From Actinomycetes bacterium (GTDB taxonomy: Bacteria > Actinomycetota > Acidimicrobiia > Spongiisociales > UBA5794), in the NCBI GenBank assembly GCA_024638645.1, contig JAHEJX010000006.1, forward strand, positions 9,776 through 73,775: a stretch of DNA of 64,000 nucleotides, given 5' to 3'. This document shows positions 12,096 through 48,362 of this stretch, one piece after another. The translations under genes and the position numbers were made by a program. A model generated the notes under the pieces. That model searched no databases, was not told the origin of the DNA, and worked only from the letters and a program-made list of their open reading frames with translations. Numbering within the stretch: position 1 is the first letter of the stretch; every line of letters starts with the position of its first letter.

Positions 12096-12168
12096 TAGCC
12101 CCGACCGGATTCGAACCGGCGTTACCGCCTTGAGAGGGCGGCGTCCTAGGCCCCTAGACGACGGGGCC
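12096..12168 (-). tRNA. tRNA-Glu (CTC), CCA not encoded
   Basis: Reverse complement GGCCCCG..CCGCC-CTCTCAA-GGCGG..GGTTCGAATCC..CGGGGCTA forms a cloverleaf. Confidence 0.95.
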
Positions 12169-12196
12169 GCAATCTGCGACCAATGCCGCAAAGGCG

Positions 12197-12268
12197 CTCG
12201 GGGGGGAGGACTCGAACCCCCAACGACAGGACCAGAACCTGCTGTGTTACCAATTACACCACCCCCGA
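12197..12268 (-). tRNA. tRNA-Gln (CTG), CCA not encoded
   Basis: Reverse complement TCGGGGG TGGTGTAATTGGTAACAC..GCAGG-TTCTGGT-CCTGT..GGTTCGAGTCC..CCCCCGAG. Confidence 0.95.
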
Positions 12269-41186: not shown

Positions 41187-42125
41187 TCAGTGTCCTTCGA
41201 GCAGCCGACCAGCGCCGGTCCACGGATCGATGTCACCGGCCACCACCGCGGCCAGGGTCTCGCGTCCGGTTGGAGTGTCCAAAGCCTCCTGCGCGGCCCG
41301 GGCCAAGCGCTCGGCAACTGCCCGCCTCAGTGCGCCTTCGCGTCTCTGCACGGCTACCTCACCGCGGGCCGTGAGATGCTCACGGTGCGCTGCTATTGCA
41401 TTCACGAGATCGAGAACACCTTCACCGGAGGTTCCGACCGTGGTTACAACAGGTGCTCGCCAATCTGTTGGTTGTGCCAGTGCCAACATCTCGGTCAGCT
41501 CACGCACCGCATCTGCCGACCCATCGCGGTCGGCCTTGTTCACCACGAACACGTCTGCAATCTCCATCACTCCGGCTTTTGCCACCTGGACGCCGTCGCC
41601 CCAACCGGGAGTGACGACAACGACCGTCGTATCGGCCGCGGCCGCCACGTCCACTTCCGACTGGCCGACACCCACAGTCTCGATCAGGATTTCGTGGTAG
41701 CCCAGCCCGATGCACAGCGCGGCCACACGCTCGGTCGTTCTCGCCATCCCTCCCAGCCACCCGCGCGTTGCCATGGAACGCACAAGCACTCCATGATCGG
41801 CTGAACCGTGCTGCATCCGGATGCGGTCGCCAAGCAAGGCGCCGCCCGTGAAAGGGCTGGTGGGATCGACGGCCAACACGGCAACCCGGCTCTCGGTTTC
41901 GCGCCAGTGGGCGACGAGATGGTCGACGAGGGTGCTCTTCCCGGCGCCGGGCGCACCGGTGATGCCGGTGATCCAGCCGACGGTACGGCTCTCGTGGATG
42001 CGGGACAGCACCGCGGCGCTGGCGACTGCATCGTTCTCCACGGCAGAGATGAGGCGTCCAGTTGCACGACGATCGCCTGAGCGAGCCGCGGCAATCAGGT
42101 CTTCGAAATAGGTGGGGTCGGCCAT
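41187..42125 (-). CDS. meaB: Methylmalonyl-CoA mutase-associated GTPase MeaB/ArgK
   Basis: GITGAPGAGKST, AVDPTSPFTGGALLGDRIRM, ETVGVGQSE, NKAD. Confidence 0.93.
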   Translation of the reverse strand: MADPTYFEDLIAAARSGDRRATGRLISAVENDAVASAAVLSRIHESRTVGWITGITGAPGAGKSTLVDHLVAHWRETESRVAVLAVDPTSPFTGGALLGDRIRMQHGSADHGVLVRSMATRGWLGGMARTTERVAALCIGLGYHEILIETVGVGQSEVDVAAAADTTVVVVTPGWGDGVQVAKAGVMEIADVFVVNKADRDGSADAVRELTEMLALAQPTDWRAPVVTTVGTSGEGVLDLVNAIAAHREHLTARGEVAVQRREGALRRAVAERLARAAQEALDTPTGRETLAAVVAGDIDPWTGAGRLLEGH

Positions 42126-42161
42126 CGAGCCAGCTTAGAAGTCGAAGCGAAAGGCTCCGGG

Positions 42162-42476
42162 TCAGGTGGCGACGATCTCTTCTACGCCGGCCACCCTGTC
42201 ACGCAGGATACGTTCGATCCCCGCCGTGAGGGTCATGCTGGAAAGCGGACAGCCGCCACAGGCTCCCACCATCTGTAGATGGACCCTGCCTCCCGTTGTT
42301 CCCAGCAAGATCATGTCGCCGCCGTCGGCTTGAAGTGCCGGACGGATGTACTCGAGAGTCTCCGCCAGCAGATCGTGGTCGATCGGGCTGTCTGCCGGCG
42401 CGTCGAAAGTAACGGTCCCCGTCGAGCCGAGGGAACCGACTTCAATTACCGACGACGTAACTTCGTTCTCAGACAT
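42162..42476 (-). CDS. NifU C-terminal (Nfu) Fe-S carrier domain protein
   Basis: IRPALQADGGD..GACGGCP.S..TL.AGIE. Confidence 0.9.
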   Translation of the reverse strand: MSENEVTSSVIEVGSLGSTGTVTFDAPADSPIDHDLLAETLEYIRPALQADGGDMILLGTTGGRVHLQMVGACGGCPLSSMTLTAGIERILRDRVAGVEEIVAT

Positions 42477-42733: not shown

Positions 42734-44071
42734 CTACCTGGGCCACTTGCGTCGCAAAACAGCAGGCCCGTAGCTGGATTCCGCGCCCTCAGGGGGTACC
42801 ACCGCAATACCGCCGGACACCGCTCTGAACTGCCAATCGCCGGCCGGAGCCACGCCCAGGGACATGCCATTGGCCCGCAGCTCGAAGGGTCCGTCGGCCG
42901 CGACATCCAGTGCAAGTGCCTCCTCGACCAGTCCAATCCGAACCATCCCTGGGAGGTCGCCGGCCTCTGGCAGTAGTCCTCCGTAGTAGTGCGCCAGGAT
43001 CTGGTCATACGTGGCGCCCCGATCTGCCATTGCTTTGGCACCCCACTGGCTCATGCCGACTCCGTGCCCCCAACCCTCGCCTGCGATCTGCAACCGGCCG
43101 TCGTGACCCCGGTCCGACTCTGGCAGCAGCTGGCGGAGCGCCGCCGAAGAGCGCGGAGTGCCCGACTCCCATGAGATGTCGAACGTGTACGAGAGAACCG
43201 ATTGGGGCCAGCGCCGCCCATCGGGTCGCGCCGCCGGGAGCAGGCCTGGATAGAGCTCAGGCCCGTAGACGTTCATGATGGCCCGAAATCTCGAGATGCT
43301 GAGCCTGGTCAACCCTGATTCAGAAGCCACGACCACCGAGGAACGGCCGGCCCCCTCCGCTGGTGCATCCACGTAAGCGTCGGTGATTGCTCCGCCGGTG
43401 CTGATTCCGGCTGCAGCCATCACACGCCGCACTTCCTCACTCCCCAGTTCCACCAACCACTCTTCGTATGGGGTGACGCCTTCCTCGGGCGAGTCGACTG
43501 CAACCAGGTATGGCGAGCCCCCACCGCCCCAGACGTCTTGAACCGGCCTGGTTCGGCTCCCGGCGCTCGACGAGTAGAACGTGTGCGCTGGGCTGCCGTT
43601 GTGAAGCAGGACCTCGCCGCTGGTTCGGTTGACTGCATCTACCCACGGGGCGGCAGCCGGGTCGCGCGCTATGGCGCTCCCTCGGTAGACCTGGCACGCC
43701 TGCGTTGCACAGATGTCGTAGCCGTAAGTGCGAGCCGAACCCGATCTCCCCCGGTTCATCTCCCAAGCCAGGAAGCTGCGGGCTGCAACCGCTTGAGCCT
43801 CGAGGGCAGCAGCCGGCCAACTAGCCGGGACCTCACGCAGCCCGGTCAAGTAGTCGTCGAGTGGCCGCGACTCGACGAGGCCAAGCCTCCCGTCGACGGC
43901 CACCACTTCCAACTGGCCGACGAACCGCCCTGTGCCCCATACCAGCTCGGTTTCCCCAACTGGCATGAGCTCAACTGTCTCCGGGAGCGTATCGGGCAAC
44001 GCGGAGGCGGCCGGCATGCCTGAGACCGCCAGGAGAAGGGCAGTGAGGCTGATCGGCAGGAATCGTCGCAT
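42734..44071 (-). CDS. SpoIID/LytB domain protein (lytic transglycosylase-like)
   Basis: Signal peptide; EVPASW..ALEAQAVAARS, DICAT..CQVY, G.GHGVGMSQWGA, ILAHYY. Confidence 0.9.
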   Translation of the reverse strand: MRRFLPISLTALLLAVSGMPAASALPDTLPETVELMPVGETELVWGTGRFVGQLEVVAVDGRLGLVESRPLDDYLTGLREVPASWPAAALEAQAVAARSFLAWEMNRGRSGSARTYGYDICATQACQVYRGSAIARDPAAAPWVDAVNRTSGEVLLHNGSPAHTFYSSSAGSRTRPVQDVWGGGGSPYLVAVDSPEEGVTPYEEWLVELGSEEVRRVMAAAGISTGGAITDAYVDAPAEGAGRSSVVVASESGLTRLSISRFRAIMNVYGPELYPGLLPAARPDGRRWPQSVLSYTFDISWESGTPRSSAALRQLLPESDRGHDGRLQIAGEGWGHGVGMSQWGAKAMADRGATYDQILAHYYGGLLPEAGDLPGMVRIGLVEEALALDVAADGPFELRANGMSLGVAPAGDWQFRAVSGGIAVVPPEGAESSYGPAVLRRKWPR

Positions 44072-44104
44072 CAGTTGATTCTCTCATTGCCGGACGTACA
44101 GTCG

Positions 44105-44302
44105 CGCAAAGGCCCGGGACTGACGCCCCGAGCCTTTGTCGCGGATCACCCTTCAGGAGGTGGTCGCTGAGTGACCGATGGTCCGCCAGCTGCCCATTGC
44201 CCCATCTGGGTTCTTTGTCGGATCCCGCATGACCGGGACCGCAACTTCTTACTGCTGCCACCTCGCTTGACCGGGTCTACAAGCCCGAAAAACAACTCGT
44301 TG
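44105..44302 (-). ncRNA. Candidate 6S/Ms1-like structured RNA
   Basis: TATGCT at 44314-44309; arm 44251-44276 pairs with 44148-44172; inner stem 44227-44240 with 44180-44193; AAGAAG bubble; 3' hairpin 44107-44138. Ends approximate. Confidence 0.6.
44107..44138 (-). terminator. 12-bp hairpin closing the candidate ncRNA/murA transcript
   Basis: CAAAGGCTCGGG-GCGTCAGT-CCCGGGCCTTTG on minus strand (one G-U pair). Confidence 0.7.
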
Positions 44303-44370
44303 TAGCCGAGCATAAGCGTTGAGCGTTCGATTCGCTCGGAAACGTGGATGGGTCGCGGATACCTCGGCGC

Positions 44371-45633
44371 TCATGTACGAGAGATCCTGGCCCCGAGAGC
44401 CACCATCTTTGGTACGAACCCCGCGTAACCTCGATCGATGTGATCTGCGTCGACGACTCTCGTTTCCCCGTCTGCAACGAGCCCCGCCAGTACGAGAGCG
44501 GCGGCGGCCCGGATATCGCAGCCGTCCACCTCGCATCCACTCATCTCGTCCACGCCTCGAACCACAACGTGCTGGCCGTCAGTCGTTATGTCTGCGCCCA
44601 TACGATTCAGCTCACCGACATAGCGGAATCGGGCGGCGTAGACATTCTCGGTGACGATGGAGGTGCCGTCGGCAGTAGCCAGAAAAGCCACCATCTGCGG
44701 ATGCATGTCGGTGTGGAACCCGGGATATGGAAGCGTGGCGAAGTCCACCGGCGATGCGCGCTCGGGTCCCGCCACGGTGACCCAGTCTTCACCCGTTGAT
44801 ACCTCGCACCCGGCGGCAGCCATCTTGCGGAGCTCCATTCGGAGATGATCTGGGACACAATCGATGATGGTCACAGCACCGCCGGTGATGGCGCCGGCAA
44901 GTGCGTAAGTGCCGGCTTCCAGCCGGTCCGGAACCACACGATGATTGGCCGGTTCCAGGCCGGGCACACCGTGAACGGTTATCGAAGAGGTACCGGCGCC
45001 CTCAATCTTCGCCCCCATCTTGTTGAGGTACTCGGCAAGGTCGGCAAGCTCCGGTTCCCTGGCAGCATTCGAGATTGTCGAGGTGCCGGATGCCATCGCC
45101 GCCGCCAGGAGGATGTTTTCTGTGGCCCCGACACTGGGAAACTCGAGGTAGATGTCTGATGCATGCAGTCCGTCGGGAGCAGTGCCCCTGAGCACGCCGT
45201 GGCTCAGTTCGAAGGTGGCGCCCATTTCCCGCAAACCGTCCAAATGCATATCAATGGGTCGCGACCCAAAGTCGTCGCCACCGGGCAGAGCGACTCGTGC
45301 TTCCCCGCAGCGCGCCAGCAGAGCTCCGAGTATCAGGATGGATGCTCGCATCTTGCGAACGAGCTGGAGCGGCGCCTCAGGATTGGGTCGCTCTGGCACG
45401 GTGATTTGAAGGGAGTTGCCTTCACGTTGACACGTGGCACCGGCGTGCGATAGAACCTCTCCCATGATCGCCACGTCGGCAATCCCGGGAACGTTGTCGA
45501 GAACGTGGTCCCCCGGGGCGAGCATGGCAGCGACCATGTGCTTGAGAACCGCGTTCTTGGCCCCGAGAACGGCTACCTCGCCACGCAGAGGCGCACCGCC
45601 GGTCACCTTGATCGTTTCGATCCTCGAACTCAC
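44371..45633 (-). CDS. murA: UDP-N-acetylglucosamine 1-carboxyvinyltransferase
   Basis: GAKNA, MRASI, LPGGD..G.RPID.H, PSVGATEN, DIRA, HIDRGY. Confidence 0.97.
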   Translation of the reverse strand: MSSRIETIKVTGGAPLRGEVAVLGAKNAVLKHMVAAMLAPGDHVLDNVPGIADVAIMGEVLSHAGATCQREGNSLQITVPERPNPEAPLQLVRKMRASILILGALLARCGEARVALPGGDDFGSRPIDMHLDGLREMGATFELSHGVLRGTAPDGLHASDIYLEFPSVGATENILLAAAMASGTSTISNAAREPELADLAEYLNKMGAKIEGAGTSSITVHGVPGLEPANHRVVPDRLEAGTYALAGAITGGAVTIIDCVPDHLRMELRKMAAAGCEVSTGEDWVTVAGPERASPVDFATLPYPGFHTDMHPQMVAFLATADGTSIVTENVYAARFRYVGELNRMGADITTDGQHVVVRGVDEMSGCEVDGCDIRAAAALVLAGLVADGETRVVDADHIDRGYAGFVPKMVALGARISRT

Positions 45634-45684: not shown

Positions 45685-46215
45685 TCACAGATCCTCGTTG
45701 AGAACCACTAGGCCGCTGCGAAAGACGTTGGCGTGAGACTCCCAGCTCGAGTTGGGGGCCCTGACTTCGACGCCGAAGCCCTTCGACGGAGTCACAGGGA
45801 CAAGTCGATGCCAGAGGCGCCCGCTCGAGATAAATCCCCACGAGTCGTAGACCCCACCCTGCTCGAGCATCACGTTGGCCAACTCAGCTTCGCCACCGTC
45901 GAGGATCGACCACAGGAGTTCAACGACGTCTCGAGGAGCCACGGGCCACGACGCTCCGGCATTCACAGCTATTCCTTCGAGATTGACCCGACCAACCGTC
46001 GCGATGACGTCGGCTGAGTCTGCATGGGTGAACGAAACGAACCTTTCTCCTGTTTCTGCCACGGTCCAGCCATCCGGATAGTCGACGCAGAAGTCGGCTA
46101 TGCAGACCTGCTGGGTCGCGGCTATCACAGGCGCGTTGGGACCGCCGCCGCACGACGCTACGAGCATCGCCGCGGCGAGTGCGACGATCTGGGAAAGCCT
46201 GGTACTGCGATACAT
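45685..46215 (-). CDS. Hypothetical lipoprotein
   Basis: Lipobox VASC; start uncertain. Confidence 0.65.
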   Translation of the reverse strand: MYRSTRLSQIVALAAAMLVASCGGGPNAPVIAATQQVCIADFCVDYPDGWTVAETGERFVSFTHADSADVIATVGRVNLEGIAVNAGASWPVAPRDVVELLWSILDGGEAELANVMLEQGGVYDSWGFISSGRLWHRLVPVTPSKGFGVEVRAPNSSWESHANVFRSGLVVLNEDL

Positions 46216-46292
46216 CGTTCCTCTCAAACGCCCGGTCCGGGGCGCCGATTCATTAGTACTATTGCCGCTCCCCCACTTCTTGATCGGCTGCT

Positions 46293-48362
46293 GTGATGCA
46301 AGAACGATATATCAACCGAGAGTTGTCGCTGCTGGCGTTCCAGGAGCGGGTTCTCGCGCTCGCCGCAGAGGCGACCGCTCCCCTACTCGAGCGGCTCAAG
46401 TTCATTGCCATCGTGAGTTCCAACCTCGACGAGTTCTTTCAGGTCAGGGTCTCCGGTCTCATCGGACAGAAGCGCAGCGGAGCCGACATCCGGTCGATCG
46501 ATGGGATGACGGCGTCTGAGCAGCTCGAAGCCATTCGGCAACGGGTGGCATCGATCGTCACTGAGCAAGACGACATCTTTCTCGACCAGATAGTGCCGGC
46601 CCTCGACAAGGAAGGCATTGCATTCGTCAGTTGGGACGAGCTCCCCGCCGCAGAACGCCGCGAGCTGGCTGTGACGTTCGAAGAGCAGATGTTTCCCGTC
46701 TTGACACCGCTTGCGGTCGACCCGGCACACCCCTTCCCGTACATCTCGAACCTGTCCTTGAACCTGGCCGTACTGGTTCGCGACGCGGCGTCGGACACGC
46801 GCCGTTTTGCCCGCGTCAAGATCCCACCCGTTTTGCCGAGATTCGTACCCCTCGCCGATGGCGAGCGCTTCGTACCCCTCGAACAGGTAGTTGCTGCGCA
46901 TTTGCCACGCCTGTTCCCGGGTAGCACGGTCGAGGCTCACTTCGCATTCCGTGTGACACGCAACGCCGATTTCGCGGTTGAGGAGGACGAGGCCGACGAC
47001 CTGCTGTCCGCAATGGAGAACGTCCTCTACTTCAGGCAGCGCTCAGCGAGCGCTGTGCGGCTCGAGGTGGAAGAGGACATGACCGACGAAGTCCTCAACG
47101 TTCTCATCCGCGAGCTCGACCTGACCTTTGATGACGTCACAATTCACCGGGCGCCACTCGGCCTGTCGGCGCTATTCAGCATCCACAGTGTCAATCGCCC
47201 CGATCTCAAAGACCCACCGTGGGTGCCGACCACACAGCGGACCCTCACCCCGGCGGGCGAGACGGTCGATTTCTTCGCAAAGATGAGACAGCAAGACATT
47301 CTCGTGCATCACCCTTATGAGTCGTTCGGCACGTCGACTGCCGCCTTTCTCGCCCAAGCAGTGAAGGACCCTGACGTCCTCGCCATCAAACAGACCCTCT
47401 ACCGAACATCCGCGGCAGACGACCCGGCGATAGGAGGCGAGCGGGCCGTGGTTGAGATGCTCCGTGAAGCAGCCATGGCCGGCAAGCAGGTTGTTGTGCT
47501 CGTCGAGCTGAAAGCTCGGTTCGATGAAGCGGCGAATATCAACTGGGCTCGGATGCTCGAAGACGCAGGCGCCCATGTCGCGTACGGCGTGACCGGCTTG
47601 AAGACCCACGCCAAGATCCTCCTCGTGGTGCGCCGTGAAGATGGCGGGGTTCGCCGGTACGCCCATCTGGGCACGGGCAATTACAACCCCAAAACTGCAG
47701 TCATCTACGAAGACCTTGGTTTGTTCACCGCAGACGAGAAGATCGGGGCCGACATCTCGGAGCTCTTCAACTCGCTCACCGGTTACGGTGCGGGCGCCGA
47801 GTACCGGAAGCTGTTGGTGGCGCCGGCGCGGCTGAAGGACCGCATGATCGAGCGGATCCGTAACGAAGCGGCGCTCGGCACCGATGGCAAGATCGTCTTC
47901 AAGATCAACCACATCACCGATCCGGACGTCATTGACGAGCTGTACGCCGCCTCGCAGGCCGGCACTCGGGTCGAGCTCATCGTGCGAGGGATCTGCTCTA
48001 TCAGGGCCGGAGTCCCCGGGCTTTCAGACAACATCAGCGTACGTTCGATCGTCGGCCGCTTCCTAGAGCACTCCCGGATCTACCGCTTCGGCCGACCAGG
48101 TCGGGGTGCGGTCTACTACATGGGTTCGGCCGACCTCATGCAGCGCAATCTCAGCGGAAGGGTGGAGTCGCTGGTTCCGGTCACCGATTCCGGCCTTCAG
48201 GAGCGCATAGAGGAGATTCTCGACACACTGCGCGCCGATGATGTGCTGGCATGGGAGCTCGAGCCGAGCGGTGAGTGGCACAAGGTTCCGGCCGACGCCG
48301 GAATCGATACTCACGTCACAATGCAGGCGAGCGCACTCAACCGAAGCAAGGAAGCGTCCTAG
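46293..48362 (+). CDS. ppk1: Polyphosphate kinase 1
   Basis: INRELS, SSNLDEFF, HPFPYIS, HHPYESF, ELKARFDE, KTHAK, GTGNYN, FLEHSR. Confidence 0.97.
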   Translation: MMQERYINRELSLLAFQERVLALAAEATAPLLERLKFIAIVSSNLDEFFQVRVSGLIGQKRSGADIRSIDGMTASEQLEAIRQRVASIVTEQDDIFLDQIVPALDKEGIAFVSWDELPAAERRELAVTFEEQMFPVLTPLAVDPAHPFPYISNLSLNLAVLVRDAASDTRRFARVKIPPVLPRFVPLADGERFVPLEQVVAAHLPRLFPGSTVEAHFAFRVTRNADFAVEEDEADDLLSAMENVLYFRQRSASAVRLEVEEDMTDEVLNVLIRELDLTFDDVTIHRAPLGLSALFSIHSVNRPDLKDPPWVPTTQRTLTPAGETVDFFAKMRQQDILVHHPYESFGTSTAAFLAQAVKDPDVLAIKQTLYRTSAADDPAIGGERAVVEMLREAAMAGKQVVVLVELKARFDEAANINWARMLEDAGAHVAYGVTGLKTHAKILLVVRREDGGVRRYAHLGTGNYNPKTAVIYEDLGLFTADEKIGADISELFNSLTGYGAGAEYRKLLVAPARLKDRMIERIRNEAALGTDGKIVFKINHITDPDVIDELYAASQAGTRVELIVRGICSIRAGVPGLSDNISVRSIVGRFLEHSRIYRFGRPGRGAVYYMGSADLMQRNLSGRVESLVPVTDSGLQERIEEILDTLRADDVLAWELEPSGEWHKVPADAGIDTHVTMQASALNRSKEAS

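Follow-up and report, generated by a model that had tools for sequence, protein, structure and literature searches.

A candidate small RNA gene between murA and spoIID in one genus of Acidimicrobiia

Gram-positive bacteria contain C-rich base-pairing small RNAs (sRNAs), such as 6C/B11 and RoxS/RsaE, which are small, stable and terminator-ended and occur in lineages without Hfq. Genes for cell-wall hydrolases can be preceded by riboswitch leaders, the c-di-AMP ydaO class being an example, and terminator stems normally preserve pairing rather than sequence. All of these bear on the 299-nt gap (44072-44370, minus strand) between murA and spoIID in a 64,000-nt stretch of DNA from an Actinomycetes bacterium of the class Acidimicrobiia (GenBank assembly GCA_024638645.1, contig JAHEJX010000006.1, positions 9,776 to 73,775; hereafter the window, to whose numbering all positions refer). 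For this gap, an earlier note had proposed a 6S/Ms1-like RNA that would bind RNA polymerase by imitating an open promoter. The main text of a survey of Ms1 sets the scale for such RNAs: candidates shorter than 150 nt were excluded, the shortest known 6S RNA measures about 160 nt, and Ms1 itself, searched for at about 300 nt (220-235 nt in Streptomyces), is flanked by genes of the HAD-hydrolase type and for an oxidoreductase (PMC9130861). The string 'Acidimicrobi' is absent from this main text, while the supplementary species lists may bear on the class (PMC9130861). The element that we describe here is confined to one genus of Acidimicrobiia, and judging from the sequence we rate the chances as about even that it is a small non-coding RNA gene, placed between a murA terminator and a promoter of spoIID's own.

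What sets the genus apart is the length of the gap. The upstream gene, murA (UDP-GlcNAc 1-carboxyvinyltransferase; 44371-45633, minus strand), is a 420-aa open reading frame (ORF) with a Pfam EPSP_synthase match at E 6.1e-94; the downstream gene, spoIID (42734-44071, minus strand), is a 445-aa ORF for a SpoIID-domain protein with a signal peptide (Pfam SpoIID, E 3e-18), and no in-frame start lies further upstream. A spoIID match is present in 39 of 41 related genomes, and murA stands directly upstream of it in 29 of the 30 loci fetched. Outside the genus, the spacing between the two genes is -14 to +77 nt in all 23 syntenic loci, including L021 and L024 from genomes flagged as unpublished (G027, G038), and stop and start codons often overlap. 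Within the genus, the gaps measure 299 (this genome), 217, 184, 263 and 184 nt; in G004 the gap is 68 nt. On a metagenome contig related at the genus level (L233, SpoIID 62% identical), about 224 nt separate the murA stop from the spoIID ATG. The carriers of the insert are five of the six genomes of the genus and this one contig. As the long gap is found in this genus only, it is a novelty at the genus level and no general property of the murA-spoIID junction.

Over most of their length the six insert-bearing gaps cannot be aligned, and only a core is common to them. This core (44095-44170, minus strand, alignment A2) consists of the 3' strand of a helix P1, a linker and a hairpin P2; it reads as the C-rich ACCUCCUG, 2-3 nt, GGUGAUCCGCG and then a long hairpin closed by CGCG/CGCG. 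Thirty of the 77 alignment columns are invariant over the six sequences, including the 11-nt run GGUGAUCCGCG, whereas only 7 of 94 fourfold-degenerate sites are invariant in the last 210 codons of murA from five lineages, at pairwise identities of 31-47%. An invariant core beside saturated murA sites shows that the core is under purifying selection, and we consider it likely that it functions at the RNA level.

Could the selected sequence nevertheless lack a separate RNA function, as a murA 3' untranslated region or an intercistronic insulator whose stacked terminators and spoIID promoter uncouple the two genes? Such an insulator would suit the comparison with other genera, where murA and spoIID overlap or lie at most 77 nt apart, and in loci with gaps of 43-59 nt a hairpin does precede the promoter-like box that is found here before spoIID. 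P2 resembles ordinary gene-end hairpins too, being long and GC-rich like those after stop codons in this genome and its family. Unlike intrinsic terminators and intercistronic hairpins, however, it has no U-tract, its flanks are invariant in sequence, and it is coupled to a second conserved helix. An insulator leaves unexplained why an 11-nt run from the end of P1 through the linker into the base of P2 has not changed at all where fourfold sites are saturated, why P1 is conserved with covariation, and why a TANNNT box and a helix stand at the predicted start of an RNA; we regard it as unlikely.

The shared fold is the second line of evidence. The gap region as a whole folds with a minimum free energy (MFE) of -102.8 kcal/mol (z = -3.0; of 200 shuffles, one does equally well). 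When the window transcript is folded as 44301-44095 (207 nt), the outer helix ACCC..GAGGUGG/CCACCUC..GGGU dominates the ensemble with pair probabilities of 0.93-0.94. The pairing of 5' and 3' ends drawn in the earlier note is thus real, and relatives keep it as the two-part closing helix P1 (44148-44276, minus strand), made up of P1a (ACCC/GGGU) and P1b (GAGGUGG/CCACCUC). In the window RNA, P1a has two possible ACCC partners, an outer one at 44276 and an inner one at 44211. Ahead of it, MFE folds contain a 5'-terminal hairpin, P0 (44279-44300, minus strand), in this genome, in G002 and in the metagenome contig, which is absent from G001, G003 and G005. P1 is followed by the single-stranded linker GAUC (44144-44147, minus strand), part of the invariant 11-nt GGUGAUCCGCG in all six sequences, and by P2 (44103-44143, minus strand), a GC-rich, terminator-like hairpin of 18 bp without a U-tract, which the earlier note had also recognised. 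Its energy is -33.8 kcal/mol here and -26.9 to -31.5 kcal/mol in relatives.

Folded singly, the lineages arrive at one common layout, [P0]-P1a/P1b-GAUC-P2, with pair probabilities of 0.9-1.0. In the consensus, P1a pairs [A/G][C/U]C[C/U] with [G/A]GGU, an internal loop follows, and P1b pairs a G-rich strand with ..ACCUCC below a variable apex. Whole-RNA z-scores are -3.25, -3.68, -3.61 and -3.06, and the MFE structure makes up 0.40 (L007), 0.19, 0.11 and 0.08 of the ensemble. P1 and P2 also emerge from the RNAalifold consensus of the five relatives. For model building we used alignment A4, without the window copy, because MAFFT had misplaced the 5' strand of P1 in alignment A3, which includes it. 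In A4, 94.4% of cells hold a pair, a share that falls to 40-51% when the partners are slid, and 5 of 28 pairs have changed on both sides, a number reached by 8 of 500 shuffles; the covariation score is equalled by 1 of 500. These double-sided changes fall in helices 1 and 2 (one pair each) and in P2 (3 of 17 pairs). As only four distinct sequences contribute, the covariation is supportive and not conclusive. The strand, on the other hand, is fixed by the better fold in the direction of the genes: in all five sequences, the gene-direction RNA, with 2-8 G-U pairs, is 2-16 kcal/mol more stable than its reverse complement.

Against this fold, the proposed 6S/Ms1-like architecture does not hold up. 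The earlier note had placed an inner stem (GGUCC..UGC/GCA..GGACC) and a central bubble within an irregular rod. Both stem and bubble have a pair probability of 0.0 and are not conserved, and the rod, when forced, reaches -82.2 kcal/mol compared with -95.7 kcal/mol for the MFE structure, a cost of 13.5 kcal/mol. The interior of the window MFE fold is instead a multi-branch of local hairpins, with no rod and no bubble. In this genome only, P1 encloses a branched stretch (44164-44257, about 94 nt) as an insert, which is missing from relatives. The length of about 190-200 nt given in the earlier note applies roughly to the window copy, predicted at 202 nt, but not to its homologues, at 96, 96, 98, 115 and 120 nt, which fall under the size accepted for 6S or Ms1 in the main text of the Ms1 survey (PMC9130861). 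Under a covariance model built without the window copy (R2), the inner AACCCAGAUGG (about 44212) lines up with the 5' terminus of the relatives' short RNAs, and the region upstream of P1 varies in sequence and length among lineages. The window RNA therefore appears, from this alignment, to have gained about 65 nt on its 5' side together with the branched apex, exactly the parts that had been read as bubble and inner stem.

Comparison with known families points the same way. At gathering thresholds, Rfam finds two tRNAs only in the whole 64-kb window, and none of its families, 6S among them, matches the locus. A permissive search of 501 nt around the gap returned two chance matches on the plus strand (E 2.3 and 5.3), which score 12-14 bits where the cut-offs are 47, and there was no 6S match at E <=10 in 43950-44450. 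The loci of five relatives (19,723 nt) have no Rfam match at E <=1, riboswitch and leader families included. The 6S model RF00013 has no match in this genome or in 41 genomes of the order; since it detects 6S in only 5 of 14 well-known control genomes, this absence is weak evidence, and a 6S equivalent of the order, if there is one, escapes the model. What the element has in common with 6S RNA is that it is small and non-coding, with its own predicted promoter and paired 5' and 3' ends, and that it approaches 200 nt in the window copy only; it differs in having neither bubble nor rod, in homologues of 96-120 nt, in its restriction to one genus, in the lack of a model match and in its neighbourhood. 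With Ms1 it shares an actinobacterial lineage and the nature of a structured intergenic RNA, but the conserved RNA is about 100-120 nt long and its neighbours are murA and a SpoIID-domain gene, as the earlier note had itself remarked, rather than the HAD-hydrolase and oxidoreductase genes named in the main text of the survey (PMC9130861). The element was found neither in G004 nor in any other genus searched, and is apparently dispensable. A polymerase-binding mimic of the open promoter is hence highly improbable, whereas the discrete RNA unit proposed with it is supported: a non-coding minus-strand element whose predicted -10 box, closing helix and terminator-like hairpin recur in the relatives that have the insert.

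The distribution was delimited with two models, R1, which represents the core, and R2. R2 detects the window copy at 54.5 bits (E 1.2e-12), and R1 matches G000, G001, G002, G003 and G005 at 69-89 bits, in a single copy each. All other R1 matches among 121 genomes of the family, the window's own included, remain at or below 33 bits, and R2 has no match above 36 bits besides the window in 151 genomes of the order, again including its own. The relatives' murA-downstream regions, which the earlier note had wanted compared, yield conservation and compensatory changes within a single genus. G004, at 95% completeness, has no R1 match to the core. Its 68-nt gap (L005) keeps an 11-nt string, GCTGGCGGACC, that is common to the apex of the window RNA, which suggests that the RNA may have been deleted there. 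A tree of MurA and SpoIID splits the genus four ways without further branching order, so that it does not decide between gain and loss in G004. We rejected the weak model matches outside the genus, which are ordinary GC-rich hairpins after stop codons and do not adjoin murA or spoIID. A contig scan with the pattern CCTCCT-N3-5-GGTGATCCGCG produced at least 119 stretches, and none among the matches listed adjoins murA or spoIID (tblastn, 0); we discarded them as noise.

That the gap is non-coding, as the earlier note had stated, is borne out by comparison. Three ORFs do exist there: on the minus strand one of 55 aa (44146-44313) and one of 96 aa (43971-44261), and on the plus strand one of 44 aa (44171-44305), the last preceded by AGGAGG. 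None of them is kept in relatives, however, peptide matches between relatives are equal in all frames on both strands, and the conserved block contains a frame-breaking length difference of 1 nt (CCUG-AAG-GGUG against CCUG-CG-GGUG). It is extremely improbable that the gap encodes a small protein.

Where would such an RNA begin? A scan for the sigma-70 consensus found no two-hexamer promoter around the gap, and the TANNNT promoters of this genome show no detectable -35 signal. Among 6,491 ORFs of 150 aa or longer (genome G+C 62.4%), TANNNT ends 6 nt before the first ATG or GTG in 241 cases and 7 nt before it in 115, over a background of 16.4 +/- 6.0, an excess by which leaderless mRNAs appear to be very common in this genome. 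The hexamer TATGCT (44309-44314, minus strand), which the earlier note called a -10 box, is confirmed in the sequence and is of this type: ahead of the core, every one of the six gaps with the insert contains a single TANNNT (TATGCT, TAAGAT, TATGGT three times, TATGCT), located 56-75 nt past the murA stop. With the spacing seen at leaderless genes here, transcription is predicted to start at 44301-44302 (minus strand), 7-8 nt past the hexamer. In every lineage, the predicted start is followed at 1-3 nt by the onset of a helix, P0 or P1a, which supports the promoter. In this genome the box is overlapped by a hairpin with a T-run (44285-44311, minus strand; GCTCG-7-CGAGT, then TGTTTTTCGG), a putative murA terminator, and other lineages have a different hairpin directly 3' of the murA stop. 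The hairpin and T-run would probably terminate murA transcripts and would lie outside any RNA started 7-8 nt past the box.

The other end is more equivocal. P2 is not followed by a U-tract, the next 10 nt being not T-rich in any lineage. In this genome, windows folding at -28 kcal/mol or lower are enriched after stop codons (39 against 7 of 800 sampled), and among the strong gene-end hairpins (<= -22 kcal/mol) only 6 of 127 have at least four T in the next 8 nt. Given this enrichment of U-tract-less hairpins at gene ends, P2 has the form of the organism's normal gene-end signal, and P2-type hairpins without a U-tract mark gene ends in relatives too. The gene ends of this genome are in general unlike canonical intrinsic terminators.

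Since P2 may not terminate, the main rival to a separate RNA is a 5' leader of spoIID, 130-230 nt long and transcribed from the same promoter, in which P1-GAUC-P2 would be a cis-acting attenuator, a stabiliser or a protein-binding site. The position of the element would suit it: without exception it is found immediately ahead of spoIID and on that gene's strand, and in three lineages P2 ends 28-34 nt before the ATG. Like the riboswitch leaders of cell-wall hydrolase genes, it precedes a gene for peptidoglycan remodelling and ends in a hairpin; unlike them, it has no Rfam riboswitch or leader match and no conserved domain of the size of an aptamer or ligand pocket, the part upstream of P1 being variable. 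One structure dominates, and no alternative, antiterminator-like pairing was seen, though no systematic search was made. Against a leader stand also the use of P2-type hairpins at gene ends in this genome and the spacer between P2 and the ATG, which varies from 28 to 96 nt and contains a conserved promoter-like box. In addition, the leader could draw on pairing within its own message, as a conserved 21-nt stretch of the element finds the best duplex of the roughly 4-kb locus at spoIID +692 to +697 in this genome, G001 and G003, but no compensatory change is seen there and the match is of marginal significance. Overall, we consider a leader possible and a separate transcript slightly favoured.

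The promoter-like box just mentioned, TGAGAGAAT (44078-44086, minus strand), lies 6 nt before the spoIID ATG, where it could serve a leaderless spoIID mRNA as an extended -10 box or else belong to a ribosome-binding region. The motif TGnGA[GC]A[AG]T, 6-7 nt and the spoIID start follow one another in all seven genus-level loci, and GA[GC]AAT at 6-7 nt from ATG or GTG is also present at L012, L018 and L020, which belong to three other genera. Sequence and position fit a -10 element from which a leaderless spoIID mRNA would be read. The spacer in which it lies differs among lineages in a further respect: between P2 and the spoIID start, G003 (L008, 2261-2327) carries 4.5 tandem copies of a 15-nt unit with 73% matches, which lengthen the spacer ahead of the box, and G001 has one copy of this unit. 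The array may be a repeated regulator site or a product of replication slippage.

The reading of the insert as a separate small RNA gene would then combine these parts as follows. The -10-only promoter TATGCT would start an RNA at about 44301/2, which would fold into the 5' hairpin P0, the two-part closing helix P1 and the linker GAUC; P2 would end or protect the transcript, as similar gene-end hairpins would in this genome, which would make the product about 200 nt long in this genome and 96-120 nt in relatives; and spoIID would be transcribed from a promoter-like box of its own, 6 nt ahead of the ATG. The functional surface would be the invariant GGGU-GAUC-CGCG junction together with the C-rich strand ACCUCCUG of P1, which would most likely be recognised by a protein or else, when P1b opens, pair with G-rich, Shine-Dalgarno-like mRNA. 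As to any regulatory role, a base-pairing regulator is a tentative suggestion, and a protein-binding RNA is doubtful as well. The resemblance to the C-rich sRNAs of Gram-positive bacteria, compared here through Rfam, lies in the conserved ACCUCCUG, able to pair with Shine-Dalgarno-like sequences, but the C-rich stretch is here inside helix P1b and not in a loop.

The search for a partner gave one lead. The spoIID site at about +695, within the codons of a VDRPPEG motif, is the top duplex in this genome, G001 and G003, with -26.1, -34.3 and -28.0 kcal/mol, and the other top-scoring sites are likewise ATC-ACC (Ile-Thr) codon pairs. An ungapped match like that of G001 (16 Watson-Crick and 2 G-U pairs of 21) occurs 26-38 times per 8.2 million genome positions, which corresponds in the best lineage to a chance rate of about 0.004-0.006 per gene; the site ranks first in three of six loci, and its changes in G003 and G005 are uncompensated. 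We treat this pairing as a lead only and claim no target. The window copy of the site lies at 43352-43377, where the codons read VDAPAEG. Pairing with the 3' end of murA (GGAUCACC-type codons) was rejected, as 30-96 distinct better sites exist in four loci and 12 and 3 in the other two. An origin of the element by inverted duplication of spoIID was also rejected, its reverse-complement alignments being reached by 30, 146, 20, 33, 2 and 43 of 200 shuffles.

A quite different role would be in translation. The 3' strand of P1b, CACCUCCU in this genome, reads like the tail of 16S rRNA matched in related genomes, and the invariant GGUGAUCC after P1b is complementary to that tail's GGAUCACC. P1b might therefore imitate a Shine-Dalgarno:anti-Shine-Dalgarno duplex, by which the RNA could dock on the 30S subunit or occlude Shine-Dalgarno sites. 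The resemblance is a post-hoc one over 6-8 nt. Of 13 related genomes, 4 contain the 16S tail pattern, the unpublished G027 among them, and no match to it came from the six assemblies of the genus. A role of this kind is very unlikely; if true, the RNA might adjust how leadered and leaderless mRNAs are balanced in a genome with very many leaderless genes.

Several points weigh against a separate small RNA gene. A TANNNT hexamer is expected by chance about once per 145 nt, which makes a single box per gap weak on its own, and the box before spoIID begins with G, GANNNT being only marginally enriched at that offset across the genome (118 against 89 +/- 16). Start, end and abundance of the RNA are all predictions from the DNA. 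P2, having no U-tract, may fail to terminate, in which case the RNA would be the spoIID leader. The covariation is drawn from four to five lineages only. Finally, duplex searches of the loci found no convincing target, and the conserved bases are mostly paired in a very stable fold, leaving about 4-9 conserved unpaired bases for a seed.

What does the element mean for its lineage? One of its neighbours encodes the enzyme for the first committed step of peptidoglycan synthesis and the other a protein that remodels peptidoglycan, which makes the element a candidate regulator of cell-wall homeostasis. If confirmed, it would be among the first small RNAs described for Acidimicrobiia, as far as the literature was searched; these bacteria are abundant in sediments and waters, and almost no RNA biology is recorded for them. 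The analysis also suggests ground rules for the lineage: -10-only promoters, frequent leaderless genes, gene-end hairpins without U-tracts and no 6S RNA detectable with RF00013. Its main value is negative, in that the attractive 6S/Ms1 reading fails.

The wider neighbourhood adds some minor observations. Upstream of murA lie a 180-aa ORF without a Pfam match (45685-46227, minus strand) and, on the opposite strand, a polyphosphate kinase gene (46293-48362, plus strand). Downstream of spoIID, genes for a NifU-like domain protein and a MeaB-type GTPase occupy 41187-42476 (minus strand). The two tRNA genes that are the sole Rfam matches of the window at gathering scores are adjacent to each other at 12096-12268 (minus strand).

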